Part shown: piece after piece, positions 18,055 to 58,677 of the stretch
How positions within the stretch are numbered: the first letter of the stretch is position 1
How the letters are laid out: each line of letters starts with the position of its first letter
Source: a virus
Lineage: Duplodnaviria > Heunggongvirae > Uroviricota > Caudoviricetes
IMG/VR virus record: IMGVR_UViG_3300026302_000005
Coordinates: 209,301-273,300 of that record
Strand: one strand, 5' to 3'
Length of the DNA stretch: 64,000 bases
The notes under the pieces: model-generated
Databases searched by the model: none
Told to the model about the DNA's origin: nothing
The model's input: only the letters and a program-made list of their open reading frames with translations
Made by a program: the position numbers and the translations under genes

Positions 18055-18225
18055 TGGCACGACAGGCGGGATTCGAACCCCCGGAAACGCCTCTAGGAAG
18101 GCTTGGCCGGTCTTTACGCTACCTTCCACCCAACTACTTGCTCAGACCCCTAGTAGGTCTACACGTCAAGCCCTGGCCCTCACGAGTCCCAGAAGTGGCT
18201 GCTCTATCCAACGAGCTACTGTCGA
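18055..18225 (-). ncRNA. tRNA-Arg-like RNA with an approx. 93-nt insertion in the anticodon arm
   Basis: Acceptor CGACAG/CTGTCG plus G-CCA, D-arm GCTC-GTTGGAT-AGAGC, T-loop TTCGAAT; 171 nt in total. Confidence 0.65.
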
Positions 18226-18228
18226 ACT

Positions 18229-18302
18229 TGGTAGTCCCACCAGGAATCGAACCTGAGTAAAACGCTCATCAGGCGCTTGCTCTACCACTGAGCTATGGGA
18301 CC
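18229..18302 (-). tRNA. tRNA-Ile(GAU), variant loop CU-GAU-GA
   Basis: Cloverleaf; CCA encoded. Confidence 0.85.
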
Positions 18303-18310
18303 GAAATCCA

Positions 18311-18409
18311 TCACGGATTGTTTCTGCCGAACATGCTGGTCTTCTTGAACTCGTCCATTCCCACCTGCCGGATTGCCTGTAGAAATGCCTGATACAGAGC
18401 GTCTTTCAT
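18311..18409 (-). CDS. Small ORF, 32 aa, inside the tRNA cluster (MKDALYQAF...)
   Basis: GAGGA SD; hand translation. Confidence 0.5.
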   Translation of the reverse strand: MKDALYQAFLQAIRQVGMDEFKKTSMFGRNNP

Positions 18410-18423
18410 GTTCGTCCTCGCTT

Positions 18424-18506
18424 TGGAGAACCGGTGGGGAGTCGAACCCCTTGACCATGGATTAAAAGCCCATTGCCAGTCCACACCGACTTTCGTCTAC
18501 CGGTCC
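18424..18506 (-). tRNA. Atypical tRNA-Lys(UUU)
   Basis: Acceptor GGACCGG/CCGGTTC, T-loop TTCGACT, enlarged D region, 8-nt anticodon loop CTTTTAAT. Confidence 0.65.
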
Positions 18507-18511
18507 AATTT

Positions 18512-18586
18512 TGGTAGTCCCAGATGGTCTCGAACCATCGACCCCAGTCTTATCAGGACTGTGCTCTACCCCTGAGCTATGGGACT
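18512..18586 (-). tRNA. tRNA-Ile(GAU)
   Basis: Canonical cloverleaf, loop CT-GAT-AA, CCA. Confidence 0.92.
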
Positions 18587-18596
18587 ATAAAGTGCT

Positions 18597-18671
18597 TGGT
18601 GAACCGGGAGAATTTTGAAATCTCGACCTTGGGTTTAAGAGACCCCTGCTCTGCCTCTGAGCTACCGGTCC
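18597..18671 (-). tRNA. tRNA-Lys(CUU)
   Basis: Loop CT-CTT-AA, CCA; T-arm GAGAT-TTCAAAA-TTCTC is slightly unusual. Confidence 0.85.
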
Positions 18672-18880
18672 ACGAAGCACTCTACTTGTATATCACCTCG
18701 GCGTAGATGCGTTGGTAATACTCATCTTCTTCACGCTCCCCGAGTTTTCGGATCAATCCCTGGTGGGTTTTCAACCACTTTGGGAAATCCTCATTCCGAG
18801 GGTCTTCATACATTCGCCGATACAGATCGACGATGTGGTTCAGGCGTTATGCGTGGTCAATTCGTTATCCTCCAGAAGTT

Positions 18881-18956
18881 TGGTGTCCCCAGCAGGATTC
18901 GAACCTGCGACCTTCGGTTTCGTAGACCGACGCTCTATCCGCTGAGCTATGGGGAC
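18881..18956 (-). tRNA. tRNA-Arg(ACG)
   Basis: Canonical; GGATA D-loop; loop CT-ACG-AA; CCA. Confidence 0.95.
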
Positions 18957-18966
18957 AATTTGATTT

Positions 18967-19042
18967 TGGAGCCCCTGGCAGGAATCGAACCCGCGACCTG
19001 ATCGTTCGAAGCGACCCGCTCTATCCACTGAGCTACAGAGGC
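18967..19042 (-). tRNA. tRNA-Arg(UCG)
   Basis: Canonical; loop CT-TCG-AA; CCA. Confidence 0.93.
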
Positions 19043-19121
19043 ATGTTGGTTTGGAACTGTGTTGAGGGTGTATCACACACGGGTTCCGGAGGCTTGTGGC
19101 TCTCCGGATAAGAGAGCAGCA

Positions 19122-19169
19122 TCAAGCCTTGGATGTAATCCGGCGCTTTCGTTTGTGCTGCATAGCCAT
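19122..19169 (-). CDS. Leader peptide MAMQHKRKRRITSKA of the Arg/Lys/Ile tRNA operon
   Basis: AAGGA SD 8 nt upstream; codon run AAA CGA AAG CGC CGG ATT. Confidence 0.75.
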   Translation of the reverse strand: MAMQHKRKRRITSKA

Positions 19170-19213
19170 GGTGATGGTCCTTCGGTTGACGGGTGATTCC
19201 GTCCTTGCAACTG

Positions 19214-19242
19214 TATTTAGCGTAGACTGCTCGATCTGTCAA
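19214..19242 (-). promoter_or_regulatory. Promoter of the Arg/Lys/Ile tRNA operon
   Basis: TTGACA-N17-TAAATA. Confidence 0.8.
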
Positions 19243-19298
19243 CACCCAATCGGAAAAAACTTTCAGCCCTACCTCTCGGTGCTCATAACCAGGCTGGA

Positions 19299-20000
19299 TC
19301 ACACTATGGCACCGTGGAACACCTCGTCGTAGGTTTGCACCATGGCATCCAACAGCATCCTCGCGGCAGCAGCCTCGTCCCACTCTGGGTAGAACTGTGA
19401 GAGAGGTATCAGATCGGGTATCATTCCTATATGCCGGAAGAAGCTATCAAGCTGATTGTAGTGCAGATCGTGACGATCACTAGATGGGAAGTAGGACCGA
19501 AGCAGCAGAAGCTGATGATGTGTCCGAGCCACATACATAGTGCGTTCCATATTCGGGACCAGGTGGGTAGGCCATTCGATTTCATCCCGGGGTTGATCCG
19601 GTGGTGTATACGACGGCATCTGGTGTTTCCTGGTCTCTGCAAACACCATCACGCTTTTGAGTGTGTCCAACGGATTACGATGAACAAATATGGGTTGGTA
19701 TTTTTTGCTTTGAATGAATGCAGCCAGATACGGGTATAGCCACGTCTGGTTTGTTTGACGAACTGTGATTTTATGGGGGTGCCTCAGACCATCCTCGTTG
19801 GTCTTGTTCCACTTTGCCTCGGTCCACTCCAGAAATGCAGCCGGAGAACTATCATCAGCTTCTGCAAACAATTCACCCTGATACAACCCACCAATAGCCC
19901 GAGCTATGGTGGTGACTAGAACTGTAGTTCCAGATCGACCCGTGCCAATTATGATGTAGTCCTGAGATGGATCATACCACGAAAAGTTATCGGAAAACAT
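19299..20000 (-). CDS. Sulfotransferase-family protein
   Basis: IIGTGRSGTT (5'-PSB loop) and VHRNPLDTLKS (3'-PB motif). Confidence 0.75.
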   Translation of the reverse strand: MFSDNFSWYDPSQDYIIIGTGRSGTTVLVTTIARAIGGLYQGELFAEADDSSPAAFLEWTEAKWNKTNEDGLRHPHKITVRQTNQTWLYPYLAAFIQSKKYQPIFVHRNPLDTLKSVMVFAETRKHQMPSYTPPDQPRDEIEWPTHLVPNMERTMYVARTHHQLLLLRSYFPSSDRHDLHYNQLDSFFRHIGMIPDLIPLSQFYPEWDEAAAARMLLDAMVQTYDEVFHGAIV

Positions 20001-20026
20001 AATTCACCATCACCCGCATGCGCCCC

Positions 20027-20635
20027 TCAGGTCCACAAAGACTTGCGAAGCTTTACAATCTCCAATATAGCCGCATCGCGGCGGAGATCAATCTCTGCAC
20101 TGATAGCCATGGCCTGCTCATACAGGGGTTTCTGATGTGGTGGGCGAACAATCTGATGCACCACCGCGTTGTTCGGTCCAACCTCAACCTTGCGGGTTCT
20201 CGGAACATCCTTATTGGCGTCCCGCCATTGGTTCAGCAGATCAGCCTTTCGAGCCTCCATCTCAGGTTCACCCCGAGTGAACCATTCATAAAGCTCGATG
20301 ACCTTTTCGGTAGTTTCGATCTGCGGTCGAACATCCGTCAGGTCTTCTTCCCACGAAGCACGGATGCCCACCAGATACGCATGGAGTTGAATCAATCCGC
20401 CCATTTCGTCTTCTACGTATCGACGGAGAAGCTTGATCAATGCGGCTTCCATGATCGCATCGATGTCGTAGTATGCGGGTTTCAGATCGGTCCGGATGAT
20501 GTGGTATTGATGTCGTGGCATCAGGCGATACACCACCGACCATGAGAGGTCGTTGGCTCGACGAACAGCTTTGCGAAGCCACTTAGGCCCCCGCTGTGGC
20601 CATTCCAAATACCGCTGGAGCCACGAAAGAATCAC
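20027..20635 (-). CDS. Conserved phage hypothetical protein, 202 aa
   Basis: Coupled ORF ending L..I.K.R..LWT. Confidence 0.75.
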   Translation of the reverse strand: MILSWLQRYLEWPQRGPKWLRKAVRRANDLSWSVVYRLMPRHQYHIIRTDLKPAYYDIDAIMEAALIKLLRRYVEDEMGGLIQLHAYLVGIRASWEEDLTDVRPQIETTEKVIELYEWFTRGEPEMEARKADLLNQWRDANKDVPRTRKVEVGPNNAVVHQIVRPPHQKPLYEQAMAISAEIDLRRDAAILEIVKLRKSLWT

Positions 20636-21018
20636 TGCGTGTCACCACCCATTGGGGCAACCGGGCGGTCCTCGACGCTGAGAAGGGTGCGAGTCCCATC
20701 CACAAGGTTGACCACCCACACCTGACCATAGCCGTTGATGAAGCCTTTCATGCAATCATCGATGCTGCTGGTCTGCTCCTGTTGGCAAATGGTGGTTGCG
20801 GCCTGCATCATCTCGTTGTCTGGGGCTGTATCTCGGACGGTCACCAACTGGTATTGAACCTCGTTGGTGGCTCGGAGGATTTCCCCGTCGAGAACATCGC
20901 CGTGACCCCACCATTTGCCAAGCTCGAACGTGCCTATGATGGCGATGATCCCGACAATCGTGATCACTCCCGGTTTGAAGAAGTCCTCAAAGGACCAGGG
21001 TGCTTTGTATTCAGCCAT
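20632..21018 (-). CDS. Membrane-anchored hypothetical protein
   Basis: N-terminal TMD. Confidence 0.7.
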   Translation of the reverse strand: MAEYKAPWSFEDFFKPGVITIVGIIAIIGTFELGKWWGHGDVLDGEILRATNEVQYQLVTVRDTAPDNEMMQAATTICQQEQTSSIDDCMKGFINGYGQVWVVNLVDGTRTLLSVEDRPVAPMGGDTQ

Positions 21019-21307
21019 TTGCGATTTCCGTTCCTACGGCGGCATCCCGCCATTGCGTTGTGAATGGTGTTAGGCGTTTATGGTTGCTCGGCCAGTCATT
21101 TTGGTCGAGGTCGGTAACCACCCCACACACCGGGCATTTGAACCCCACGGCGGGATCGCTGTCACCCCAGGAACCAGTATCGCTACCCTCCCAGAAACGC
21201 AGATCATCCCGGGATACCCGCAGGAGAGAACCGCATCCTTTTCCGCCGTTTCCCTTGCCAGTGCAAGAGACGTCCATAGTTGGATATTTACGTTCCAGAA
21301 CTTCCAT
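21011..21307 (-). CDS. Zn-ribbon protein
   Basis: C..GCG and CPVCG. Confidence 0.7.
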   Translation of the reverse strand: MEVLERKYPTMDVSCTGKGNGGKGCGSLLRVSRDDLRFWEGSDTGSWGDSDPAVGFKCPVCGVVTDLDQNDWPSNHKRLTPFTTQWRDAAVGTEIANG

Positions 21308-21316
21308 AGTCGATCC

Positions 21317-22231
21317 TCAATACCAGGTCTTGGTGCAGGTGATATCCACCGGTGATACACAAGTTTCGGCACCACATGTGATGGGTTCTATCGGAAACCG
21401 GACGATCTGGTCCCTGACGTTTCCGAGCCGCCCACCCTCACGACACCACCCACGAGATATATCCCCGTTCGTGCGGATGACTATCATCTCCAGACCAATA
21501 TTACAAGTCCAATCTCTCCAATGGTTGAGATTTTCTGCAATGATTCTATCAGGTGTCATGGTGATCTGTTGGTCTGGATAGATCACGGACATTGCACCGC
21601 GATAGGATTGATGCATGCGGGTGCGACTCTTGACGATTAGGTCTTGGATCAAAATGTTACCGGCATCAATGTCAGTCCGTTGCTGCTCAGTCGGAACTTC
21701 TCCGGGAATCAGGTTCAACCCCATCGTGATGTTCCGACACTTCGCTGCAATCTCTTTGGAGATGCGAAGCGCATTGGTGATGTCAGTCAAGGCGAACTCT
21801 ATGTTGACATGTATGTCAACACGATCCGAGGACGTGGATAGCCCTTCGATGAGATGTTCCGGATCATGTTGGTCTACTCGGAACGCCACCACCGCACGGT
21901 TGAGAACATCCCGAACACCAATCCAGAAATCAGCGGTGGGCTCGTGTTGGATATAAACTCCGGTGTAGACTCCGATGGATCGAAGATACGTCAACACCGG
22001 GATAACACGGTGGGATCGAATCAGATTTGACCCGGAGAATTCCACGAATGGAGTCTTCCCCAGGGTATGCCGGTAGTGATGCACCATATCGGAGCAGAAC
22101 CGAATCAGGTCTGGTTCTGGTGCAATTGGATCATCCTGGTCGTCGGAATAATCCCCCAACGACCAGTTGACCACAAAAATGCTGGCATGATCCGGTGACG
22201 CATGCCGGATAGCTTCTGCTTCTTCCATCAA
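21317..22231 (-). CDS. Degenerate radical-SAM-like protein with a SPASM/twitch-like C-terminus
   Basis: FSGSN..; WTCNIG..I..NGDI.RGWC..C....C...DI; CxxxCxxC absent. Confidence 0.55.
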   Translation of the reverse strand: MMEEAEAIRHASPDHASIFVVNWSLGDYSDDQDDPIAPEPDLIRFCSDMVHHYRHTLGKTPFVEFSGSNLIRSHRVIPVLTYLRSIGVYTGVYIQHEPTADFWIGVRDVLNRAVVAFRVDQHDPEHLIEGLSTSSDRVDIHVNIEFALTDITNALRISKEIAAKCRNITMGLNLIPGEVPTEQQRTDIDAGNILIQDLIVKSRTRMHQSYRGAMSVIYPDQQITMTPDRIIAENLNHWRDWTCNIGLEMIVIRTNGDISRGWCREGGRLGNVRDQIVRFPIEPITCGAETCVSPVDITCTKTWY

Positions 22232-26325: not shown

Positions 26326-26338
26326 GATGCAAGGGTAT

Positions 26339-26680
26339 TTAGGCTTCTTCGGTGCCTTTGTCAACACCAATGTATTCGGGCCAGTCCGAAAAGTCCCCGA
26401 CATCCCAATCGCGGATGAAATACACCACCGTGTGATCATCTTCCAGTGGATCATCCGCCAGCTTGAGGGCAAACCGAAATGCCCGCAGTGGATCGCAAGG
26501 ATCGGTCTCCATGGCCGCGATATCCACCACCCCAACGAGTTCATCGGTCGAACCGGGTTCCAGCCATTGGGTGTAGCCATTCTCAATGGCCTTGTCCATG
26601 GACGCAGCATGGATGTAGGTATGATCGATCTTGCCGTTTTTCCGGATCGATACCCGATATTGCTTGAACTCACCAGCCAT
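26339..26680 (-). CDS. Hypothetical protein, 113 aa
   Basis: GGAGG SD; coupled. Confidence 0.75.
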   Translation of the reverse strand: MAGEFKQYRVSIRKNGKIDHTYIHAASMDKAIENGYTQWLEPGSTDELVGVVDIAAMETDPCDPLRAFRFALKLADDPLEDDHTVVYFIRDWDVGDFSDWPEYIGVDKGTEEA

Positions 26681-27235: not shown

Positions 27236-27985
27236 TCAGCCCCCGTTGGTAAAGCGTTGATAGACGATCCTGTCCACACCCACGGCGAGTTCGAACACCT
27301 TGAGGTTCTTCTCGACCGCACCCTTGTTGGTCTTGAACGAATAGGTGCCGGGGAAGTCCGTCCGGATACTGGCGGATGCGATTTCCATCCACCGTTGTGC
27401 CATTTCGTCATACACCTCGATGTCCAGGGTGGACTCGGCATAGGCCGGAATGCGATCCGATTCGATGACACGCACCTGGATGGCCGCACAAAGATTTTGG
27501 ATCACCGGAGCCACACGTTCCAACACCACTGACCGATAGTCGTTCTTGGTATCCTCAGTGTAGATGCACTGGAATTCCTGTTGATAGAATTCCTTGAGCC
27601 GCATGAACTTCGTGGGCTGTTCCTGTTCACGCCGGAACGACTTGCCGACTTGCCAGAAACAGACGGGTGGTCTCCATGCGGATTGGACGTCAAATACGGC
27701 CCGTGCGTAGGCGTAGGTGCTCGGAGTGGTCTCCGGTCGCAGAACCAGCGGAACAGCCGTCTCCGAGCCGCTCTGTGCGTATACGTCGGCATCAGTGTAT
27801 TCCTGGTTGATGATCGAACGCGGCACCAGAACGGTGCCCTCAATCTGCTCGAATGCCCAGGCTTGGTTCTGGCTCCATAGCGTGTTCTGAACACGGCGAG
27901 CAATCTGTTCCACAGCATGTTGCCGGAACTGAATGTGGGCACCGGTCCAGAAGACCAGGCCATTGATGTTGTGAATGTTATGCAT
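27236..27985 (-). CDS. Class II aminoacyl-tRNA synthetase catalytic core (alpha2 GlyRS-like), no anticodon-binding domain
   Basis: LRPET; motif 2 WQVGKSFRRE..RLKEFYQQEFQ; WMEIAS; motif 3 AVGVDR. Confidence 0.85.
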   Translation of the reverse strand: MHNIHNINGLVFWTGAHIQFRQHAVEQIARRVQNTLWSQNQAWAFEQIEGTVLVPRSIINQEYTDADVYAQSGSETAVPLVLRPETTPSTYAYARAVFDVQSAWRPPVCFWQVGKSFRREQEQPTKFMRLKEFYQQEFQCIYTEDTKNDYRSVVLERVAPVIQNLCAAIQVRVIESDRIPAYAESTLDIEVYDEMAQRWMEIASASIRTDFPGTYSFKTNKGAVEKNLKVFELAVGVDRIVYQRFTNGG

Positions 27986-28496
27986 CGAGTTTCTCGACCT
28001 CATAGAAAGCGGGGGTTTCACCATAGGTCTGGAAGAATTCCATCCTGGCAACACGATAGATATCGTTGGGGTCCTTGTTCGGGTAGGGGGTCCCCAGAAA
28101 ATCCCCCTCTTCCAGGATCATATCTTCCCCCCATGGAGCTTCGAATTTCACAGTGGGGCCCGTGTAGAAGCCACCGATGATCTGGCCCTTGGCAGAGACC
28201 TTGAACCAGGTCTGACCTTCTACCATAAGAACTTCATCAGAGCGATCATACCGATTCACGAACTTTTCGCCACTGATCGGGTAGCGTTCAGCCGAACTGT
28301 TGATCATGATGTTCTGGATCACCCAGTCCCCGGCGAACGTAGGCTTGAGCGTTTCGATGCGACCGGCAACGACTGTGATGACGGTCTCACCTGGCTGGGC
28401 GGGGCGGGCCAACATCACCCCCTGCTTCTGATAGACCCCACCCGCGTTGATGCGGTTGAACAGTTCGATGATCTTGTCTTTCGGCAGATAGTCCAT
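27978..28496 (-). CDS. Hypothetical phage protein
   Basis: GDWVI..E.YPI..F motif; coupled. Confidence 0.7.
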   Translation of the reverse strand: MDYLPKDKIIELFNRINAGGVYQKQGVMLARPAQPGETVITVVAGRIETLKPTFAGDWVIQNIMINSSAERYPISGEKFVNRYDRSDEVLMVEGQTWFKVSAKGQIIGGFYTGPTVKFEAPWGEDMILEEGDFLGTPYPNKDPNDIYRVARMEFFQTYGETPAFYEVEKLDA

Positions 28497-31338: not shown

Positions 31339-32126
31339 TCTCGGGTCTTCCTATGCACAATGGTTAGCTCATGGCGGGCGAATGCGGTATCCACACATAG
31401 CTGAATGGCTTTTTCAGCCAGTCGTGCTTCTACCGTCTTCTCTTCATCCTGGGACTGCGAAATCCCACGGAGAAGCTGATCGGAGTTTACCGCTACGTTG
31501 AATGCCACGGATGGATCATCCATGACCACGGGGATGTTCAGGACCATGCTGGTGCTGTGTGAGGATACGTTCCCACCAAACTCCATCGACACGGACTCAT
31601 GACGGGCGGAGATCGTGACGATATCTTCACGACCAGAGCTTGGGGCCGCAGCGTGAATCCGCTTGATCTCGGAAAACTCTTTGATCGCATCGATGTCCCA
31701 CATGAACATGACCGGCCATTTTTCGATGGTGACCGACTTGGGTTTGGTGATGCTGGCCCGGAACGGATCGGTCGTCACATAGACCATTTCGGTTCGGGCA
31801 TTTGGACGGAATACCAGAGAGCCCGCGATCACCCGCTCGTTTTGCTCCCTCACCATGACATCGACCGTCCCGGCACCGGCCTTGGCGATGGATGATCCCA
31901 GGAGTTGGTTCAGATACCCCAGGTTGCCCAGACATGCACGGCTACCCTTGATACTGATGGGGTTCTTGGATACCGAATTGAAGTGGATCGATCCATCGGT
32001 GGCCGAAGCCTTTGCCAGCAACGTTCCATCCGGTTGTTCTTTCAGGTGGACGAACTGGATGATGGAACCGAACGCGGTTACCCGGCTGACCACTTCACGA
32101 AGGAATGGCACAAGATTGTCAGTCAT
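31335..32126 (-). CDS. Probable DNA polymerase sliding clamp (gp45-like)
   Basis: About 263 aa, alpha/beta pattern, directly after polB; motif match is weak. Confidence 0.5.
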   Translation of the reverse strand: MTDNLVPFLREVVSRVTAFGSIIQFVHLKEQPDGTLLAKASATDGSIHFNSVSKNPISIKGSRACLGNLGYLNQLLGSSIAKAGAGTVDVMVREQNERVIAGSLVFRPNARTEMVYVTTDPFRASITKPKSVTIEKWPVMFMWDIDAIKEFSEIKRIHAAAPSSGREDIVTISARHESVSMEFGGNVSSHSTSMVLNIPVVMDDPSVAFNVAVNSDQLLRGISQSQDEEKTVEARLAEKAIQLCVDTAFARHELTIVHRKTRE

Positions 32127-33042
32127 AGAAGTCATCTACCTCTTCTGTTACTTCGGCGGCACAGTTTGTGGGTGGAGTAAAGTTCCAACCCAACACGTCC
32201 CCGATTACGTTGAACAGCTTTTTGTCCAACAGCTTCTCTTCCATTCGGGCTACATCAAACGGCAACCGACTGAACCAGTCTGGGATATAGAGTTCCCCAG
32301 TGCGAATTGCAACAGCATCCATCTGTTCTGGATTCGGTAACAGGTAGATAACCCCAACCTTGTCCCCATCGTGGATGCTATCCCATCGGGTTTCTCCATA
32401 GTGTTCGATCAACCGATTCGTGTTCAACGCGGCCTTGACCGTGAAGTGCATCTGATCGACCTTATCGCCGTATTCACCAGCTTCGACCTGTTCTTCGAAC
32501 ACCCGGTAGGCTTTGGTATGAACGCTCAGGTTTTTCACCCGACCTGGACTAACCTGTTGCCACGGCGGCATGGCCCGGAACGTCTTGCGGAATTCATCCA
32601 CCCGGGCCCGAACCTCATCATACGTCTTGTCCTGTTTGATCACCAGTTCGATGCACTCGGACAAGAAGTCCTGAATGAACGCGGGGGTATCGGAACGCTT
32701 GGTTTCCATACCCATGACTTTGATCTTGTCCGCAGATCGACCTTCGGAGTTGACCACGTGGATAGCGTATCGCTTCTTCTTATCCTTGAACAAGGCTTTG
32801 CGACCGACGTTTTCCCGACCTGGCTTCAAGATGGCCAGGTCCTTCGGAGAACTTAGGAATTTCCTTGATAGAATGTCGGGTAGCTCTGACTCAAGACGGG
32901 CCTGCAACCGGTCAGCCAGTGCCACCATGTTGTCAACCGTCTGTTCAATCCCATGCTTCTCCGCGTGTAGGTCTAGCCGCACGTAACTTGAGTCGGTGTC
33001 CCCCATGAGGACGTGTGTGAATCCGGAACTAGACAATTTCAT
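32119..33042 (-). CDS. Family B DNA polymerase, C-terminal part (motif C, palm/thumb)
   Basis: MGDTDS, KKKRYA, KVMGMETKRSDTP. Confidence 0.85.
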   Translation of the reverse strand: MKLSSSGFTHVLMGDTDSSYVRLDLHAEKHGIEQTVDNMVALADRLQARLESELPDILSRKFLSSPKDLAILKPGRENVGRKALFKDKKKRYAIHVVNSEGRSADKIKVMGMETKRSDTPAFIQDFLSECIELVIKQDKTYDEVRARVDEFRKTFRAMPPWQQVSPGRVKNLSVHTKAYRVFEEQVEAGEYGDKVDQMHFTVKAALNTNRLIEHYGETRWDSIHDGDKVGVIYLLPNPEQMDAVAIRTGELYIPDWFSRLPFDVARMEEKLLDKKLFNVIGDVLGWNFTPPTNCAAEVTEEVDDFYD

Positions 33043-34999
33043 CCTCCAGCAGATGTTCTGCATGATCAGCCATGGCCGATAGGCAGATACGACCGCTCAT
33101 CGTAACGCTGGCACCCATACGAGGATCATAGAACAGACAGAAGGCGTTGAGAAGGGCTCCATAGGTGGAGTTCAGGAAAATCTTCTGAACCTGTTGACGC
33201 ATGTCAAAATAGGCGACTTCAACCTTGATCGTTTCGAGATCGTTCGCCCTGTTTTTCTCAGCCTGCTCCAGCTTGTCCTTGGCGGCTTTCATCTTGCCCT
33301 GGAAATCTTTCCGTTGCAGATACCACTTCTCCAAGCAATACGGGATGATACCTTGTTTGCTACGATCCAAGATCAATCCGAATGCGGTGATGGCCCAGCC
33401 ATTGGCGACGATTTCCTCGTAGAGGTCGGCACCAGTAGTCTCAATCCGTTTGTCCGGATCATCATCCGCCAGATGCTCTTGCACGAACACGACCGGTTCA
33501 TTCGACTGCTCGATCACCCGGTTGTATTCGATGGTGCCGGGGAAGTGTGACCAGGCTTCGGCTGAGTCCATGCCGTTGGCAATCATTGCCATCAGTTTGG
33601 CGATGGTTTCGATAGGATCGATGAACCCGATGATGCACTCCGGGCTGATGTTCAGCATCCGGATCACAGTCGGATACAGGGAGTTGAAGTCAAAGCTGGC
33701 CAGCCAGTTATACAACCCCTTTTGTGGATCAAGAACGAATGCCCCCGGGATCGGGTAGGCCCGCTCTATGGACTTTCTGTCAAAGCACACCAGACCCTGC
33801 TTGTGCAGTTCCTTGAGGATTGCCTGTTCGATAATCGCCACCGAGCCCAGGACCTTATCCAAGGTCACTCCGGCCATGTGTGCCATGGAGTTGGCAAGCC
33901 CAATCATCTTACGCTTGTCATCAATCGCACTCAACCCCATGACGTCTTGGCGGTTGTATGCGGTGAACCGACGGATGTCCCACCGGTATAGCTGATCCAG
34001 CGATCCCTCATAGGGGATTTTCTTCTGCTTCACTTCATGACGAAGAATAGCATCCAGCGAGTAGCTGTGCAGTTCTTCATACGTAAACTTCCGATACAGA
34101 TCGAGGTAGTCCAGGTGAACCCTACCATGCAGGTTGTAGGTCTTTTCCATGTTGCCGTAGTGTTCGACCATCCGCATTGACGGCGGGCAGTCGAAAAGGC
34201 AAAGCTGGTTGATCCACAGTTTGGATTCATCAGTCGGTTGGTATGGGTATTCCTCTGATCCATCTTCCCGAGAGATCACATCGATGGGCTCTCCCCCCAA
34301 CACGATACGAATACGCTGAATCAGATAGGGAAGGTCGAAGAACATACTGTTCCAGCCCGAGATGACATCTGCGGCCTGCATGAGGGCGATGGTCATGATC
34401 AACAGTTGGGCTTCATCCTCAACCACAAAGTAGTTGTGGCCTTCCGTCATGGGCCCCCAGTCATCATCCGGCTGTGGGATATCTGTGAAATCACCACGAA
34501 CGTCCTGATAGTATTTGCCTTCCAGCAAATCCCTGGTCTGCTCTATGGTGAGATTTTCCGGGGGGACAATGATCGTGTCGGCAATGCCGGTGGTCTTGTC
34601 CAAAATGGTAATGGCGTTGATCGGGGCGTATGGATAGTCAACCCGAGAGAACCCCTTCTTGGGGTCCTTATCGACCTCGAGGTCGATCAGTTGAATGGTG
34701 AGCGGTGGACCATCTTCACCTGGATACAACTTCTCCAGCAACCGGTTTACCGGATCGATGTCAGTTTCAAAGACCTGGGTTCCAGAGTCCTGGAACGCCC
34801 TGACAGTCTCTTTCAGTTCTTTGCGGGTAGTGGCAACATACTTCCGGAGTTTGTGGCCGTCGATGCTGGTGTGAGACCCATCCGGGGCCTCAAAATACAT
34901 CTCATACCGAACAGGATGGGTCTTGATCTGACGCTTCCCCTGAGCATCACGCTCGGAGATGTAGATTCTACCCCCTATCTGTTTGGCATCGATATACAA
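33029..34999 (-). CDS. Family B DNA polymerase, N-terminal part (exonuclease, motifs A and B)
   Basis: IDLEV, SGWNSMFFDLPY, YNRQDV, SFDFNSLYP, KIFLNSTYG. Confidence 0.93.
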   Translation of the reverse strand: MYIDAKQIGGRIYISERDAQGKRQIKTHPVRYEMYFEAPDGSHTSIDGHKLRKYVATTRKELKETVRAFQDSGTQVFETDIDPVNRLLEKLYPGEDGPPLTIQLIDLEVDKDPKKGFSRVDYPYAPINAITILDKTTGIADTIIVPPENLTIEQTRDLLEGKYYQDVRGDFTDIPQPDDDWGPMTEGHNYFVVEDEAQLLIMTIALMQAADVISGWNSMFFDLPYLIQRIRIVLGGEPIDVISREDGSEEYPYQPTDESKLWINQLCLFDCPPSMRMVEHYGNMEKTYNLHGRVHLDYLDLYRKFTYEELHSYSLDAILRHEVKQKKIPYEGSLDQLYRWDIRRFTAYNRQDVMGLSAIDDKRKMIGLANSMAHMAGVTLDKVLGSVAIIEQAILKELHKQGLVCFDRKSIERAYPIPGAFVLDPQKGLYNWLASFDFNSLYPTVIRMLNISPECIIGFIDPIETIAKLMAMIANGMDSAEAWSHFPGTIEYNRVIEQSNEPVVFVQEHLADDDPDKRIETTGADLYEEIVANGWAITAFGLILDRSKQGIIPYCLEKWYLQRKDFQGKMKAAKDKLEQAEKNRANDLETIKVEVAYFDMRQQVQKIFLNSTYGALLNAFCLFYDPRMGASVTMSGRICLSAMADHAEHLLEDEIV

Positions 35000-45175: not shown

Positions 45176-45204
45176 TATTTAGAGCAACCCTTCTTGACTG
45201 TCAA
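45176..45204 (-). promoter_or_regulatory. tRNA promoter
   Basis: TTGACA-N17-TAAATA. Confidence 0.75.
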
Positions 45205-46010: not shown

Positions 46011-46039
46011 TATTTAGAGGATCACGCCGATCCTGTCAA
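46011..46039 (-). promoter_or_regulatory. Promoter of the Pro/Trp tRNA cluster
   Basis: TTGACA-N17-TAAATA. Confidence 0.75.
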
Positions 46040-46643: not shown

Positions 46644-46760
46644 AAACATGTTCATCAAGACCATCCCATTGTCAGAGGGAGGTAGGTGACGGGCAAGTGA
46701 ATGGCGTTGGGGTTTCACTGTGTGCAATACAATAACCCAGTGCCTTCGGCCCGTCTCGAA
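46644..46760 (-). ncRNA. Structured leader or ncRNA (element B) between promoter and tRNA-Asp pair
   Basis: GACGGGC/GCCCGTC helix; motif shared with element A. Confidence 0.5.
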
Positions 46761-46762: not shown

Positions 46763-46791
46763 TATTTAGGGCATCGTTTGTGATTCGTCAA
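46763..46791 (-). promoter_or_regulatory. Promoter of the Asp tRNA unit
   Basis: TTGACG-N17-TAAATA. Confidence 0.75.
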
Positions 46792-53395: not shown

Positions 53396-53471
53396 TGGCT
53401 GGAGACCCCGGCTTCGAACCAGGCCCTTCCTGCTTCAAAGGCAGGTGCTCTACCAACTAAGCTAGTCTCCA
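53396..53471 (-). tRNA. tRNA-Gln(UUG)
   Basis: U1-A72, G73, loop CT-TTG-AA, CCA. Confidence 0.9.
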
Positions 53472-53481
53472 ACAGGTAGAT

Positions 53482-53556
53482 TGGCTGGGGCGGTAGGATT
53501 CGAACCCACGTATGTCGGAATCAAAGTCCGATGCCTTACCACTTGGCGACACCCCA
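53482..53556 (-). tRNA. tRNA-Gln(UUG), different body
   Basis: TGGGGTG.., loop CT-TTG-AT, G73, CCA. Confidence 0.95.
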
Positions 53557-53568
53557 ACGGTGTTGTTT

Positions 53569-53644
53569 TGGCTGGAAGTCCAGGCATCGAACCTGGGCCC
53601 TCGACATTCAGAGTGTCGCGCTCTACCAACTAAGCTAACTTCCA
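53569..53644 (-). tRNA. tRNA-Gln(CUG)
   Basis: U1-A72, loop CT-CTG-AA, G73, CCA. Confidence 0.92.
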
Positions 53645-53647
53645 AGA

Positions 53648-53675
53648 AACGAAAAAGCCGCCCCGGGGGACGGCT
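53648..53675 (-). terminator. Intrinsic (attenuator) terminator upstream of the tRNA-Gln genes
   Basis: AGCCGTCC-cccg-GGGCGGCT followed by TTTTCGTTT. Confidence 0.85.
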
Positions 53676-53703
53676 GTGAGGGATCGATCAGATAAGCCTT
53701 TGC

Positions 53704-53745
53704 TTAACCGCCGTATCCCTCACGATGTTGTTGCTGCTTGCGCAT
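53704..53745 (-). CDS. Attenuator leader peptide MRKQQQHREGYGG
   Basis: AGGGA SD 8 nt upstream; CAG CAA CAA; overlaps alternative helices. Confidence 0.85.
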   Translation of the reverse strand: MRKQQQHREGYGG

Positions 53746-53785: not shown

Positions 53786-53814
53786 TATTTAGTCCAAGTC
53801 CTCTGATTTGTCAA
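53786..53814 (-). promoter_or_regulatory. Promoter of the tRNA-Gln operon
   Basis: TTGACA-N17-TAAATA. Confidence 0.8.
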
Positions 53815-53983: not shown

Positions 53984-54133
53984 GTGTTTTTTCCTCACTG
54001 ACATGTCTTTTTGTATAAGTATTTGGGGGATATCAGTATGACACATGCATCCTACTAGATGATGTGTTGAGCAAATTTTCATTATTTTTCAGGGTCTTGA
54101 CGAATCAATACCTTATCGGAGTTGATTCGCCCG

Positions 54134-55342: not shown

Positions 55343-55442
55343 TGCGATTCGCTCCATGTGGGTTGGCGAAAATGCCAACGCCCCCAGCGTATCTCTACGA
55401 GGGGGCGTTGTCAACCATCAATAGCCGGGATTTTGTCTAGGA

Positions 55443-55697
55443 TCACGATTCGTCTATTGGCACCAACCCACCTTCATCCCCTGGAACTTCGGGTCCGGTT
55501 GTTTGGCTTGCAGGCCCCCTTGCGGTATCAGTGGTAAAACGGCTTTCGCCTCCCACAGGTTCCGGGCCTGTCCCGAGCTTCCTCTCCGTGGAGCCGTGAC
55601 CTCGATGGATTTCTGTGCCCTGTCGAACCCCTTCCAGCCCCTCACCATACGAGGTCATCTGTCGGGTTGTTCGCAGGATAGTCTCAAGCGTGAGCAT
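55443..55697 (-). CDS. Possible hypothetical protein, 84 aa
   Basis: TGATG coupling only. Confidence 0.35.
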   Translation of the reverse strand: MLTLETILRTTRQMTSYGEGLEGVRQGTEIHRGHGSTERKLGTGPEPVGGESRFTTDTARGPASQTTGPEVPGDEGGLVPIDES

Positions 55698-55939
55698 CAG
55701 ATGTCGTTCCAGTCCAGGATGCCCTGGCCGACGTTTCGACAGATGCTGTTGGCGGTCTCAGCCGACATCCCCTCGGGCCGTGCAATCGACCGATCCCACT
55801 CCACGAGTTCATGCGTGTAGAGTTGGCACACGATGGTGCCCTTGGGGGTTTCCACCACCACGGGGTCAGATTCGAAATCCTGTGGAGAACACGCCGTGAT
55901 GGTTGCCACGACCAGAAGTGCAAGTGCGATACGTGTCAT
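55697..55939 (-). CDS. Rhodobacteraceae-type small lipoprotein
   Basis: ITA-C lipobox; PVVVETPKG.IVCQLYT..V.WDR.I.RP.GMS...A..IC. Confidence 0.75.
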   Translation of the reverse strand: MTRIALALLVVATITACSPQDFESDPVVVETPKGTIVCQLYTHELVEWDRSIARPEGMSAETANSICRNVGQGILDWNDI

Positions 55940-55947
55940 GGTGATCC

Positions 55948-56685
55948 TCATACGACCAATGCGGTCTCTTTGGGTTTCAGCAGCATTCGTGCTGCTACCG
56001 TGCTGTCCGGTCGGTCAATCAGTTCCGGAAACAGTTCGAGTAGTTCGGTTCGGGTCTGAATATCCAACGTGCTGAGTGAACTCTTCCCGGGAAGGAAGCT
56101 CTCAGTCATCACATCATCTGCAACCACCACTTCATGGCGACCGGTCATCAGATGAATATACGTGGTATTCCGGGGAATGTCCATGACGATTCGTTCACCA
56201 TCGATCAGTCCCTTGGCGGATGCAAGGACTTCACGTTCTCCAAAGTGGAGTGCGGCTTTGTCACTGATCAACAGGAACCGATGCTGCTGGGATACCGTCA
56301 TGTCCCGACTGGGCATACCAGGTCCGAACGCATCCTTGCGAACGATCACCCCGAGCAGGGCCGGGTTCGTGTTCATCGAGTAGCGGCTCACCCGCTTCTT
56401 GCCGATCCACTCAACCTGTTGATATCCATTGTCGCGAGTGAACACCTGATCGCCAACGACAATCTGATCGACATCGATCAGGCCGTGTTTGGTCATCACT
56501 TGGCTACCCGGGGTGAAACAGATGCATCCACCCCCACCACCGCCCCCGTGACTGGAACCGTGGCTTCCGTGGCTTCCGTGGCTTCCTTTTCCACCACGTC
56601 CACGACCATCATCGTCATCTTTCAGGAAGTTGACGATACCTGTTTGTTGTTCATCATTCTGATCGCTGCTCATTTTGTTCTCCAA
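55948..56685 (-). CDS. Hint_2 (hedgehog/intein-like) domain protein with a short Gly/Ser/His-rich N-peptide
   Basis: ICFTPG, GD.V.TRDNG.Q.V.WIG, FGEREVL, Y.HL...HE, TESFLPG. Confidence 0.9.
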   Translation of the reverse strand: MENKMSSDQNDEQQTGIVNFLKDDDDGRGRGGKGSHGSHGSHGSSHGGGGGGGCICFTPGSQVMTKHGLIDVDQIVVGDQVFTRDNGYQQVEWIGKKRVSRYSMNTNPALLGVIVRKDAFGPGMPSRDMTVSQQHRFLLISDKAALHFGEREVLASAKGLIDGERIVMDIPRNTTYIHLMTGRHEVVVADDVMTESFLPGKSSLSTLDIQTRTELLELFPELIDRPDSTVAARMLLKPKETALVV

Positions 56686-56706
56686 GTTCAGCCCCCACCA
56701 CGGGTC

Positions 56707-56955
56707 TTAGTTGGATTTACTCGATTCCCGATGCACCATCGCGTTCAATACGAAATGGGTATACCAGGATAGTCTCACATATCCAATCGGTCTTGCCACC
56801 GTCCACCGGTTCGTGACTATCGGCTTTACAAGCTCTAGCCCATCCTCGTGTAAGATGAAACGACCGTGATCTCCCACAGCCCAACGTTCCGGTTCCAACC
56901 ATAGCGACTCACGTATGGCTTTGTCCAGACTTTTATAGTGCCCAATTGCTGACAA
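56707..56955 (-). CDS. Hypothetical protein, 82 aa
   Basis: GGAG SD. Confidence 0.6.
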   Translation of the reverse strand: MSAIGHYKSLDKAIRESLWLEPERWAVGDHGRFILHEDGLELVKPIVTNRWTVARPIGYVRLSWYTHFVLNAMVHRESSKSN

Positions 56956-56978
56956 TCTGTTTCTCCAAATGCCAGTAA

Positions 56979-57173
56979 TCAGGCGATGTCAGTCTTGTGC
57001 AACTTGTGATCGCGGTTGGACCGCTGTTCGTTTCGCTCATCGAGTTTCTTCCGGACCTGATCACCCTGATCGACAATCCACAAAACCCCCACGATGATAA
57101 ACAACAATCCGATCATTCCAAAGTCCATATCAGGTTCCCATCCATACTGTGTCATGACCCGGGTTCGAGTCAT
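56979..57173 (-). CDS. Small membrane protein (start uncertain)
   Basis: Single TMD. Confidence 0.55.
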   Translation of the reverse strand: MTRTRVMTQYGWEPDMDFGMIGLLFIIVGVLWIVDQGDQVRKKLDERNEQRSNRDHKLHKTDIA

Positions 57174-57768
57174 ACCAGCAATACTCGATCATCTTTCGAC
57201 CAATGTCAAGTCCTTGAGATGACAACCACAAAGTCTTTTGATGGACGGAGGTCAGAAATTCCGCACGATCCATATCATACCCGCGTTGGGTCAACATGAA
57301 CCCAACATGGGTTGGAGTTTGTTTGGCCGAATTGCGAGACAGATACTGGGATGGGATCGTGTAGATATACCTGCGGAATTCATCGACCGATTTCACCGGC
57401 ACCGAGAGTTCCAGGTGGGCTTCCCAATATCCACCCGGGTGGTCAGCACGAGCGATATCAGACGGCGATGTCTCGATCTTTGCGCGAACCGGACTGACCC
57501 GGGCCAGGATCATCCTACACATGATCCGCTCGGCTTCATCCCGGGCCTCATCATAAGTTCCACGAAATTTGTGCGAGGTCATTGCTTCATCATGAACCAA
57601 TCCATCGCGGCGGTCGGTGTGGACGAGAATCGGTTTGATCCCCAACTTCCGACAGACCTCCGGGAACGCCTGGTTGTCTTCCGGTCGCACCGTGATGTGA
57701 ATTTCATGGTGATCCAGTGGCACGTCCTGGTGCTGGAATGTGCAATCAATGCATCCAGCACAGGTCAT
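57130..57768 (-). CDS. Hypothetical protein, 212 aa
   Basis: Coupled ORF; HEIHITV and EAHLEL duplicated motifs. Confidence 0.75.
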   Translation of the reverse strand: MTCAGCIDCTFQHQDVPLDHHEIHITVRPEDNQAFPEVCRKLGIKPILVHTDRRDGLVHDEAMTSHKFRGTYDEARDEAERIMCRMILARVSPVRAKIETSPSDIARADHPGGYWEAHLELSVPVKSVDEFRRYIYTIPSQYLSRNSAKQTPTHVGFMLTQRGYDMDRAEFLTSVHQKTLWLSSQGLDIGRKMIEYCWYDSNPGHDTVWMGT

Positions 57769-58103
57769 TCGGTTTTACCCGGTTGGTTGTGCATCCAGTC
57801 GGCGGATTCCGAATTGGTAACCCCGTCGATGACAATCGGATATATGGTCGGATATACGTCAATGATGTCATAGACCGGGCCGTCGATCAGCACGAAGTTC
57901 GGTTTGTCCGGTGCCGCATCACGCCATGCCGCGAGTTCTTTCGGGGCCATGCAAATCCGACGTTCGACCTGGCCCAGACCATCCAACAACCATTGGGGTA
58001 GATAGCCGACCGACTCGGCCCGACCAATTAGGTCGTCGAGTTCCGCAATTGCGCCAACAGATGCAGCATGCACCAGGTTTCGTCTCATGTATTCGTTCGA
58101 CAC
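57765..58103 (-). CDS. Hypothetical protein, 112 aa
   Basis: AGGAG SD. Confidence 0.65.
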   Translation of the reverse strand: MSNEYMRRNLVHAASVGAIAELDDLIGRAESVGYLPQWLLDGLGQVERRICMAPKELAAWRDAAPDKPNFVLIDGPVYDIIDVYPTIYPIVIDGVTNSESADWMHNQPGKTE

Positions 58104-58105
58104 GT

Positions 58106-58429
58106 CTATCTCCTGGTATCTGCCGCTACAGCCGAAGCATAGCTCGATCCGATCAGCTTGTAAAGATCATTCGGATGCATCCCGGGTTCCCAGATGGTGC
58201 CGCCACTGATGTGGAACTGTTCGGCTTGCATGTGATGGGTCGGGCATAGACTGATGCCGTTCTGGAGCACATAGCCGCCGTTCGGCATCAGATGGCGATC
58301 CGTGATATGATGGGCGTCCAGATCGGTCTTGGAATCACAAAACCGGCACGTATGCCGGTCTCTGGAGAACACCGCGTCCCGAAACGCCTGTCGGACTTTT
58401 TTCTTGTTGGAGACTGCGATCTTGGTCAC
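58106..58429 (-). CDS. HNH endonuclease
   Basis: VFSRD..TCRFC...DAHHI...NGISLCPTHH. Confidence 0.85.
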   Translation of the reverse strand: MTKIAVSNKKKVRQAFRDAVFSRDRHTCRFCDSKTDLDAHHITDRHLMPNGGYVLQNGISLCPTHHMQAEQFHISGGTIWEPGMHPNDLYKLIGSSYASAVAADTRR

Positions 58430-58446
58430 GGTAAAGCCTCGGTAAA

Positions 58447-58523
58447 TGGTGGGCCCGGGAGGACTTGAACCCCCAACCAAGGCGTTATGAGCGCCCCGCT
58501 CTAACCAATTGAGCTACAGGCCC
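58447..58523 (-). tRNA. tRNA(CAU), most likely Ile2 (lysidine type) rather than Met
   Basis: GGGCCTG G1-C72 body, loop CT-CAT-AA, CCA; no initiator features. Confidence 0.85.
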
Positions 58524-58528
58524 GGAAG

Positions 58529-58615
58529 TTACTTCGCGGCTATCGCGGCATCAAGCTCGGCCAGCACAGCAGCCAGCGGGCGAACCACGACGATCTTGGT
58601 GTCTTTGCGAGCCAT
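58529..58615 (-). CDS. 28-aa leader ORF with a single ATA codon, ending 5 nt before tRNA(CAU)
   Basis: AAGGA SD; MARKDTKIVVVRPLAAVLAELDAAIAAK. Confidence 0.65.
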   Translation of the reverse strand: MARKDTKIVVVRPLAAVLAELDAAIAAK

Positions 58616-58648
58616 GATGGTGTTCCTTTGCGCTTCGTTCACTTGACC

Positions 58649-58677
58649 TATGTATCAGCTTCAAACTGATTCGTCAA
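58649..58677 (-). promoter_or_regulatory. Early promoter
   Basis: TTGACG-N17-TACATA. Confidence 0.7.

Follow-up and report, generated by a model that had tools for sequence, protein, structure and literature searches.

Do the short open reading frames (ORFs) that precede several tRNA operons of this phage act as leaders, through which a translating ribosome reports on the decoding of the codons that the operon itself serves? The window analyzed here is a 64,000-nt stretch of a 376-kb phage genome. The preliminary description singled out three tRNA units in it, each said to lie behind its own promoter and a mini-ORF with codons matching the downstream tRNAs. All three units were recovered on the minus strand, as were all of the features located below. 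The promoter followed by a codon-matched ORF stood up for the Gln and Arg/Lys/Ile units and failed for the tRNA(CAU) unit. On balance we think it probable that the matched mini-ORFs are regulatory leaders that tune each tRNA set to the decoding of its codons.

Promoters, leader ORFs and terminators of the tRNA units

The promoters belong to a single class. The motif TTGAC-N(16-19)-TAAATA occurs six times in the window, compared with an expectation of 0.03, and together with a TACATA variant it has 17 copies in the 376-kb genome, each directly upstream of a tRNA unit; within this genome the motif is confined to the fronts of tRNA units. For example, the Thr-unit promoter (26336..26364) lies 10 nt before tRNA-Thr(UGU); this unit lacks a leader ORF and serves as an internal contrast. 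The first Pro-unit promoter (45176..45204) lies 9 nt before tRNA-Pro(GGG) and the second (46011..46039) 20 nt before tRNA-Pro(UGG), again with no leader ORF, and the Asp-unit promoter (46763..46791) is followed by a 119-nt leader with a structured RNA element. None of these four units in the window has a matched ORF, at promoter-to-unit distances of 9–119 nt. Since the units of this class without a leader ORF begin 8–20 nt before the tRNA, the long leaders are an added feature. Codon-matched leaders are present at four units of the 376-kb genome (Gln, Glu, Arg/Lys/Ile and Phe/Tyr/Asn/His/Leu), and many tRNA units have none. In these four a ribosome-binding site and a short ORF lie between the promoter and the tRNAs, and in every leader the stop codon falls inside the 5′ arm of a hairpin, hairpin A.

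In the Gln unit, the promoter (TTGACA-N17-TAAATA, 53786..53814) is a member of this tRNA-only class. It precedes a leader ORF (MRKQQQHREGYGG, 53704..53745) in which CAG CAA CAA (53728-53736) stands, as had been described, before tRNA-Gln(CUG), tRNA-Gln(UUG) and tRNA-Gln(UUG) (53396..53644). The last six codons and the stop make up the 5′ arm of hairpin A (53676..53723), and the predicted fold of the leader has an energy of −57 kcal/mol (z −4.7). The intrinsic terminator (53645..53675) consists of a GC-rich 8-bp stem, a 4-nt loop and a U-run, and ends 1 nt before tRNA-Gln(CUG); its stem-loop (53656-53675), which precedes the U-run, lies 11 nt before the same tRNA.

The Arg/Lys/Ile promoter (19214..19242) leads into an ORF (MAMQHKRKRRITSKA, 19122..19169) with the SD AAGGA, which is conserved in four such leaders. 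The run AAA CGA AAG CGC CGG ATT was located at 19137-19154, ahead of an operon (18055..19042) of Arg-UCG, Arg-ACG, Lys-CUU, Ile-GAU, a weak Lys(UUU)-like tRNA (18427-18506), a further Ile-GAU and an insert-bearing tRNA-like gene (18055-18228). Two small ORFs also sit between tRNAs inside this operon. Three helices are predicted in the leader. Helix P (1:2, 19116..19161) pairs codons 3–5 (19156-19161) with the six nucleotides after the stop (19116-19121) and loops out the control codons. Hairpin A (2:3, 19090..19129) has an outer helix formed from the last codons and the stop, and an inner hairpin, GCUCUC/GAGAGC. Hairpin B (3:4, UCCGGAG/CUCCGGA, 19085..19108) is mutually exclusive with hairpin A. 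Hairpin B is not followed by a U-tract and is therefore not a canonical intrinsic terminator.

Two further leaders lie outside the window in the same genome. The Glu leader is MMNKCEEQRRGTE, with EE..E; its match of 3/12 codons is weak taken alone. The Phe/Tyr/Asn/His/Leu leader (Phe/Tyr below) is MLHHFYLNLTERAAV, with LHHFYLNL, a core that is kept in relatives while its flanking residues vary. Both carry an intrinsic terminator downstream of the ORF and ahead of the tRNAs.

The tRNA(CAU) unit has a promoter of the variant form (TTGACG-N17-TACATA, 58649..58677), a 28-codon ORF (MARKDTKIVVVRPLAAVLAELDAAIAAK, 58529..58615) and the tRNA itself (58447..58523). The single ATA that had been matched to tRNA(CAU) is present; however, this codon is ATT in a relative, and the best amino-acid score of the ORF is for Ala, neither Met nor Ile. 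We therefore rejected it as a codon-matched leader. It looks like a conserved small protein of 28–29 aa.

A proposed role of ribosome position in the choice of structure

In the mechanism that we propose, each leader would be written in the codons of the tRNAs of its own operon, so that the pace at which a ribosome moves along it would report the decoding of those codons. A ribosome reaching the end of the ORF would melt hairpin A and allow a second structure to form, namely the full terminator in the Phe/Tyr/Asn/His case and hairpin B in the Arg/Lys/Ile case. A ribosome held on the control codons would leave hairpin A in place and block the second structure. The most likely outcome of a shortage of cognate charged tRNA would be more read-through into the tRNA genes. 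This would be negative-feedback control of supply with the logic of trp/his/ilv attenuation, except that the product would be the sensed tRNA itself. Four steps of this mechanism are inferred: ribosomes translate the leaders, their stalling decides which structure forms, less tRNA is made when hairpin B or the terminator is present, and the polarity is as given here.

Folding with a masked ribosome agrees with this mechanism in two of the leaders. In the Arg/Lys/Ile leader, hairpin B is predicted with free RNA or with a ribosome at the stop, and hairpin A is predicted instead with a ribosome at the first control codon; in silico, the 1:2, 2:3 and 3:4 set behaves in a trp-like manner. In the Phe/Tyr leader, the last CCC of hairpin A is shared with the 5′ arm of the terminator. 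When the ribosome mask covers the control codons, the prediction is a complete hairpin A and a terminator without its three bottom pairs; when the mask is at the stop, the full terminator is predicted. Thus, of the attenuation circuitry that had been proposed, alternative helices set by ribosome position were recovered in the Phe/Tyr and Arg/Lys/Ile leaders, but a 2:3 antiterminator in the Gln leader and an intrinsic terminator in the Arg/Lys/Ile leader were not. In the Gln and Glu leaders an ORF, hairpin A and a terminator are present, and this terminator is predicted whatever the modelled position of the ribosome. No trp-type 2:3 antiterminator was found in either by folding with a ribosome mask, by folding before the 3′ arm of the terminator emerges or by folding with the terminator held open, and the classical 2:3 pairing amounts to only about −2 kcal/mol.

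The leaders could also be translated sensors whose output is not intrinsic termination but Rho loading, RNase processing, or the folding or maturation of the first tRNA. Two features are consistent with such an output. In the Arg/Lys/Ile leader, hairpin B has no U-tract, and the sequence after it has, in four of four phages, a conserved motif and a tail rich in C and poor in G. In the cultured phage Xoo-sp13, the hairpin predicted for a ribosome at the stop uses the first 7 nt of tRNA-Lys in its pairing. On the other side, textbook terminators stand directly before the first tRNA in the Gln, Glu and Phe/Tyr leaders and in that of the Caulobacter phage CcrBL9, and we regard this alternative as rather unlikely. 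Somewhat less likely still is the same sensor working with opposite polarity, in which slow decoding of the control codons would lower tRNA transcription, as an amino-acid-specific 'stringent' control of tRNA that cannot be charged. Bacteria stop stable-RNA synthesis on amino-acid starvation in the stringent response, which gives this polarity a precedent. Moreover, neither hairpin A nor the terminator of the Gln and Glu leaders is disrupted by a stalled ribosome, and a read-through conformer is conceivable there only after ribosome passage. It would pair the initiation region with the 3′ arm of hairpin A (−17.5/−16.1/−10.5 kcal/mol) and the 3′ segment of the ORF with the 5′ arm of the terminator (−13.1/−11.0/−10.3). 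However, in Gln and Glu hairpin A and the terminator together are more stable than this conformer by about 14 kcal/mol, and in the Phe/Tyr and CcrBL9 leaders the structure kept by an upstream stall removes the terminator.

Regarding the trigger of the favoured negative feedback, ordinary supply and demand fits the anatomy equally well as loss of host tRNA through anticodon nucleases. The Gln/Glu/Lys, Tyr/His/Asn, Arg and Ile tRNAs have elaborately modified wobble bases and are classic targets of such nucleases, and the leader-controlled sets in this phage are Gln/Glu/Lys, Tyr/His/Asn, Arg and Ile. Tentatively, large phages may possess a modular, demand-sensing tRNA supply, in which collapse of a host pool (by shut-off, codon mismatch or anticodon nuclease) would induce only the matching tRNAs.

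Conservation, covariation and recurrence of the leaders

The leaders are conserved as coding sequence in relatives, as the preliminary description would have it. In comparisons covering the Gln, Arg/Lys/Ile and Phe/Tyr leaders, three uncultured relatives keep them, with synonymous changes and compensatory changes in the stems, and the leader ORFs are 81–90% identical compared with 62–64% for the 5′ UTRs. In the Gln leader, the peptide is identical in a relative whose proteins are 33–89% identical to those of this phage; there are four synonymous and no non-synonymous changes, the ORF is 90% identical compared with 62% for the 5′ UTR, hairpin A is kept, and the terminator stem is rebuilt from different bases. 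The Gln unit is absent from the syntenic position in relative 3, so this comparison is with one relative. Three relatives encode the same KRKRRI core in the Arg/Lys/Ile leader, with synonymous codon differences. These patterns suggest that selection acts on the translated sequence of the leaders.

The Arg/Lys/Ile helices were compared among four phages. In helix P, two of the six pairs are changed on both sides. In the covariation count on this helix set, 97.5% of cells are paired and 4/10 pairs are changed on both sides; slid controls give 25–57%. No two of the four phages share the sequence of the outer helix of hairpin A; for this helix and for hairpin B the alignment registers differ, and their support is from per-sequence folds and not from pair counts. 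The leader codons also covary with the tRNA content of the operon, as had been anticipated. The leader reads ATT ACA in two phages with an operon lacking tRNA(CAU) and tRNA-Ile(UAU), and ATT ATA in two phages with tRNA(CAU) in the operon, with or without tRNA-Ile(UAU); an ATA in this leader is thus limited to operons that include tRNA(CAU). This covariation may reflect one single evolutionary event.

Matched leaders also occur in cultured phages. In XacN1, MNKPYYKRYYAKA stands before Lys, Lys and Tyr tRNAs (binomial 2e-6), Xoo-sp13 has the matched leader MNKLYYKRYYKKLP, and in CcrBL9 13 of 14 consecutive leader residues fall within the set of seven downstream tRNAs. The CcrBL9 ORF contains a copy of the 3′ arm of the terminator. 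In all three phages the ORF starts 5–7 nt after the −10 element and is therefore probably leaderless. The tRNA regions of four tRNA-rich jumbo phages (RsoM2USA, Phosso, SCTP-2 and XaC1) gave no clear matched leader; the sole candidate in that survey was an N/Q-rich 37-aa ORF of RsoM2USA with a score of 4.1.

Further searches widened the comparison little. A DNA search of the phage collection with both units matched at the tRNA level only, and by tblastn with the DNA polymerase the best cultured relatives are about 34% identical. IMG/VR scans with the DNA polymerase, two flanking proteins, an HD-protein alignment and degenerate Gln-leader and KRKRRI patterns gave no relatives; the KRKRRI pattern had 18 matches, none with a downstream tRNA. 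A JGI metagenome scan gave one bacterial match only, at 30% identity. The UDG neighbour was dropped as a search anchor, its homologues being mostly bacterial.

Instead, the products of the mini-ORFs might be micropeptides with a separate function, such as basic peptides that bind RNA, and resemble the tRNA set only incidentally. The Gln peptide is conserved throughout, beyond QQQ alone, the tRNA(CAU)-unit ORF is a conserved 28–29 aa protein without a codon match, and small ORFs lie between tRNAs inside the Arg/Lys/Ile operon. However, unrelated peptides of different units each match their own operon, in XacN1, Xoo-sp13 and CcrBL9 likewise, and the 3′ parts of the ORFs would be conserved because they double as helix arms; we consider this explanation improbable. 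Finally, chance ORFs in structured tRNA leaders are hardly credible: although single-leader binomial p values in this genome are modest (0.001–0.035, among 62 ORFs tested) and many tRNA units lack a leader, the leader/operon match has p of about 2e-4 (scan-statistic permutation over the 17 promoter-led units of the genome), matched leaders score 4.8, 4.2 and 5.3 for their own amino-acid set against at most 1.2, 1.9 and 2.5 for any other, the changes in the Gln leader are synonymous only, and the design recurs in three further lineages (XacN1, Xoo-sp13 and CcrBL9). The sequences themselves show the ORFs with their matching codons and their conservation, as well as the predicted alternative helices.

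Comparison with known control systems

tRNA genes are textbook cases of promoter-level, growth-rate and stringent control, and our literature search found no published leader-peptide control of tRNA genes. If the regulatory reading is true, leader-peptide control with the sensed tRNA as output would close a feedback loop undescribed in the searched literature, and would account for the dosing of individual tRNAs by giant phages whose tRNA sets are nearly complete. The signature of leader codons equal to operon content would predict which tRNAs a phage treats as limiting, and if the trigger is tRNA cleavage by host defences, the system would be an inducible counter-defence. The same design can be read in cultured phages with tractable hosts (Xanthomonas phages XacN1 and Xoo-sp13, Caulobacter phage CcrBL9) and is directly testable there.

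T-box riboswitches similarly sense the state of one specific tRNA through a terminator/antiterminator switch in the leader; however, they bind uncharged tRNA directly and without translation, using a specifier loop and a conserved T-box sequence. A T-box or glutamine riboswitch is argued against by Rfam, which returned only tRNAs and noise (the window at the gathering score, the Gln leader at E<=10, where no family matched). In tnaC and Rho-dependent control, a stalled ribosome near the end of the leader ORF decides transcription without a canonical hairpin-plus-U terminator. The Arg/Lys/Ile leader, which has a C-rich tail, could work along these lines, the Rho part being pure conjecture; TnaC, however, stalls through its nascent peptide and free tryptophan and not on hungry codons. 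The pheM leader of pheST is a case of leader-peptide attenuation of an aminoacyl-tRNA synthetase, and so acts on the translation apparatus and not on amino-acid biosynthesis, as the phage leaders would; its output is a synthetase and not a tRNA, and it is chromosomal and serves a single amino acid.

The attenuators of amino-acid operons (trpL, hisL, pheL, leuL, thrL and ilvGMEDA/ilvBN) share with the phage leaders a short ORF near the promoter that contains runs of regulatory codons. In the phage, a choice between mutually exclusive helices made by ribosome position, as in these attenuators, is predicted for the Phe/Tyr and Arg/Lys/Ile leaders, and a terminator immediately precedes the genes under control in the Gln, Glu and Phe/Tyr units. 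The phage leaders of mixed K/R/I and H/F/Y/N/L content resemble the multivalent ilv leaders. In contrast to these attenuators, the Gln and Glu leaders have no detectable 2:3 antiterminator and the Arg/Lys/Ile leader no U-tract terminator. The Phe/Tyr and CcrBL9 leaders lack region 1, so that an untranslated leader would read through. Lastly, the phage system is borne by a virus, and its output is the tRNAs, the very molecules that would be sensed.

Promoter-led tRNA units and uncultured relatives

The window forms bases 209301–273300 of a 375,937-bp virus record with a completeness of 93% (CheckV). The whole genome carries 48 tRNAs for nearly all amino acids, arranged in small, separately promoted units that are grouped largely by amino acid; a CUA (amber-reading) tRNA lies at genome 301027–301103. 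In the window, all 15 tRNAs called by ARAGORN are on the minus strand. A further, weak tRNA detected by Rfam (18427–18506, minus strand; 34 bits) shows an enlarged D region and the context of a UUU anticodon. The window also contains replication genes, including a Dda-like helicase and a split family-B DNA polymerase (32119–34999, minus strand) encoded by two ORFs of 656 and 314 aa.

The polymerase shows only ∼34% identity to those of the nearest cultured phages (XaC1, RsoM2USA, SCTP-2 and the Rak2 group), and scans of IMG/VR and one scan of JGI metagenomes found no relatives. Three uncultured relatives were reached via a protein collection and extended by exact-protein look-ups: rel1 (JGI, 204 kb), rel2 (Logan, 99 kb) and rel3 (ENA, 73 kb), with polymerase identities of 76, 60 and 45%, respectively, and an HD protein identity of 71% in rel3. 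Further relatives of the DNA polymerase (P0003–P0009) and of the HD protein (P0243–P0258) come from short contigs. Gene order is conserved in rel1, with protein identities of 33–89%. The polymerase is split in the same way in all three relatives; in many of the more distant ones it is a single protein of ∼950 aa. At the position of the weak tRNA, rel1 and rel2 have standard Lys-UUU tRNAs, and rel2 also carries the odd form.

The window contains six copies of the motif TTGAC-N(16–19)-TAAATA, where 0.03 would be expected. Including a TACATA variant, the genome has 17 copies, every one directly upstream of a tRNA unit, and the tRNA units of the three relatives are likewise preceded by it. By the spacing between the −10 element and the first tRNA, the units fall into three kinds. 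First, the Thr, two Pro, two Ser and Gly units have only 8–20 nt and no ORF. Second, the Asp, Ala/Val, Ala, Ser, Leu and Cys units have structured leaders without a matched ORF. Third, leaders of 125–210 nt with a mini-ORF precede the Gln, Arg/Lys/Ile and tRNA(CAU) units of the window and, outside it, the Glu and Phe/Tyr/Asn/His/Leu units. The Asp and Ala/Val leaders start with a ∼75-nt structured element closed by a GACGGGC/GCCCGUC-type stem (window 46686–46758, minus strand; genome 316782–316863, minus strand; positions 735–810 of the comparison stretch L009). This element is kept in rel1, and its sole Rfam match, to a nematode sRNA at threshold, is spurious.

A tRNA-like gene at 18055–18228 (minus strand) has normal acceptor, D and T arms and an insertion of ∼100 nt after the anticodon region; it is called by neither ARAGORN nor Rfam, matches no group I intron model and is kept in relatives (rel1 stretch L011, 3950–4050, minus strand; comparison stretch L014, 19035–19200). 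In another rel1 stretch (L017, 1–2900), ∼3 kb is crowded with tRNA T-arm motifs that have long inserts between them; most are not called as tRNAs and may represent tRNA genes that bear inserts or are decaying. A 292-aa protein with a class I Glu/Gln synthetase catalytic domain, of GluQ-RS-like size, is encoded right after the tRNA-Glu unit (genome 9653–10531, plus strand), and a 272-aa class II synthetase-core protein near the Thr unit (window 27236–28054, minus strand).

Codon match between leaders and operons

We compared the leader ORFs with the tRNAs of their own operons. The Gln leader ORF, MRKQQQHREGYGG, precedes tRNA-Gln CUG, UUG and UUG. The Arg/Lys/Ile leader ORF, MAMQHKRKRRITSKA, precedes Arg-UCG, Arg-ACG, Lys-CUU, Ile-GAU, the Lys(UUU)-like tRNA and a further Ile-GAU. 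Outside the window, the Glu leader (MMNKCEEQRRGTE) stands before three tRNA-Glu genes, and the Phe/Tyr leader (MKETTMLHHFYLNLTERAAV), which reads MLHHFYLNL... from the start codon kept in rel1, before Phe, Tyr, Tyr, Asn, Asn, His, His and Leu. Each leader was scored by its best window of cognate residues, and the amino-acid sets were shuffled among the 17 units. The match between leaders and operons gives a permutation p of ∼2e-4, and each matched leader scores far higher for its own set than for any other. The codon-matched Gln and Arg/Lys/Ile leaders of the preliminary description are real, and the case for them is stronger than was known there. The third leader proposed there, that of the tRNA(CAU) unit, has to be withdrawn, as its best score is for Ala and a relative has ATT in place of its single ATA. 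The ORF directly 5′ of tRNA(CAU) (window 58529–58615, minus strand; L017, 9160–9249) instead encodes a conserved small protein (MARKDTKIVV...) of 28–29 aa, 29 aa in the relative, without a codon match.

The matched leaders are conserved as peptides. In rel1 the Gln leader encodes the same peptide: four differences are synonymous and none is non-synonymous. Its 5′ UTR has diverged, and other bases make up the terminator stem. The Phe/Tyr leader of rel1 preserves LHHFYLNLT.RAA, its Leu and Ala codons showing synonymous changes, and 44 nt of the RNA downstream are identical. The Arg/Lys/Ile leader is available from four phages (MAMQHKRKRRITSKA, MALLLKRKRRITSTV, MAMLHKRKRRIITIA and MTMLHNRKRRIISKT), and its core is the part matching the tRNAs. 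Two of the four leaders have ATT ATA, and their operons contain tRNA(CAU), plus tRNA-Ile(UAU) in rel2; the other two have ATT ACA, with tRNA(CAU) and tRNA-Ile(UAU) encoded elsewhere, outside the operon. The covariation between leader codons and operon tRNA content that the sensor reading predicts is seen for ATA among these four leaders, where it may reflect a single evolutionary event.

Other small features lie in the same units. Small ORFs occur between the tRNAs of the Arg/Lys/Ile operon (window 18310–18417 and 18680–18790, minus strand), one of which (MKDALYQAFLQAIRQVGMDEFKK...) is kept in rel1 (L011, ∼4300–4425). A decayed tRNA (genome 8690–8770, plus strand) separates the Glu leader ORF from its promoter; the 3′ half of this tRNA is identical to that of tRNA-Thr(UGU).

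Matched leaders in other phage lineages

In the tRNA region of XacN1, MNKPYYKRYYAKA precedes Lys-CUU, Lys-UUU and Tyr-GUA (binomial p 2e-6); this leader contains a decayed tRNA-Lys copy. Xoo-sp13 has MNKLYYKRYYKKLP after a TTGACA-N17-TAAATA promoter and before the same three tRNAs. In the Caulobacter phage CcrBL9, 13 of 14 consecutive residues (RQFVRQIQSVRVNR) of a 32-codon ORF belong to the set of the seven following tRNAs, and the 3′ arm of a strong terminator recurs as a copy inside the ORF. No clear matched leader was found in four other tRNA-rich jumbo phages. A 37-aa ORF with NNNQRQNQ in RsoM2USA (L030, minus strand; record ∼83–103 kb), 68 nt upstream of a Met, Ile, Asn, Asn, Gln and Lys tRNA cluster, may be a further matched leader.

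Predicted RNA switches and known attenuators

All of the leaders place the stop codon within the 5′ arm of a hairpin, here hairpin A. In the Phe/Tyr leader, the CCC that ends hairpin A is also the start of the terminator stem. When any control codon is masked by a ribosome, hairpin A folds completely and the terminator loses the three pairs beside its U-run; with the ribosome at the stop codon, hairpin A is absent and the terminator is whole. The CcrBL9 leader shows the same folding behaviour. As modelled, the Phe/Tyr leader, like that of CcrBL9, is a three-region attenuator without a protector helix, in which a stalled ribosome, or absence of translation, would lead to read-through.

All four attenuator regions are found in the Arg/Lys/Ile leader. 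Codons 3–5 pair with the bases just after the stop codon (helix P), hairpin A is composed of an outer and an inner helix, and hairpin B overlaps it. In all four phages, free RNA or a ribosome at the stop codon gives hairpin B, and a ribosome at the first control codon gives hairpin A. The paired cells of helix P and the inner helix amount to 97.5%, compared with 25–57% for slid controls, and 4 of 10 pairs are changed on both sides; this covariation supports both predicted helices. The outer helix has a distinct sequence in each phage. Hairpin B has no U-tract; downstream of it lie a conserved motif and a tail rich in C and poor in G. The hairpin could act as a non-canonical terminator, via Rho or via processing.

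The Gln and Glu leaders appear to be paralogous. Their textbook terminator adjoins hairpin A without shared bases and is predicted in every modelled ribosome state; the classical 2:3 pairing is negligible in the folding models. A five-segment switch is possible in these leaders because two further pairings are available: the 3′ segment of the ORF resembles the 3′ arm of the terminator and can form a duplex with its 5′ arm (−10 to −13 kcal/mol), and the 3′ arm of hairpin A can pair with the initiation region (−10 to −17 kcal/mol). In Xoo-sp13, the first seven bases of tRNA-Lys are paired with the hairpin formed with the ribosome at the stop codon, a hint that tRNA folding or maturation may be the target of some leaders.

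To our knowledge, no leader-peptide attenuation has been described before tRNA genes. A full-text literature search of incomplete coverage returned nothing on leader peptides or attenuation before tRNA genes, viral or cellular, and promoters, leaders and terminators go unmentioned in the XacN1 paper. Within the earlier reading as tRNA-depletion sensors, there is good support for the general type, a translated sensor with matched codons that is coupled to an RNA switch; the exact output of the switches, the polarity of the Gln and Glu leaders and the proposed link to tRNA-cleaving defences are inferred. In summary, the phage tRNA leaders would work like the trp, his, phe and multivalent ilv leaders, with which they share the leader ORF and cognate codons and, in some cases, the terminator and alternative helices.
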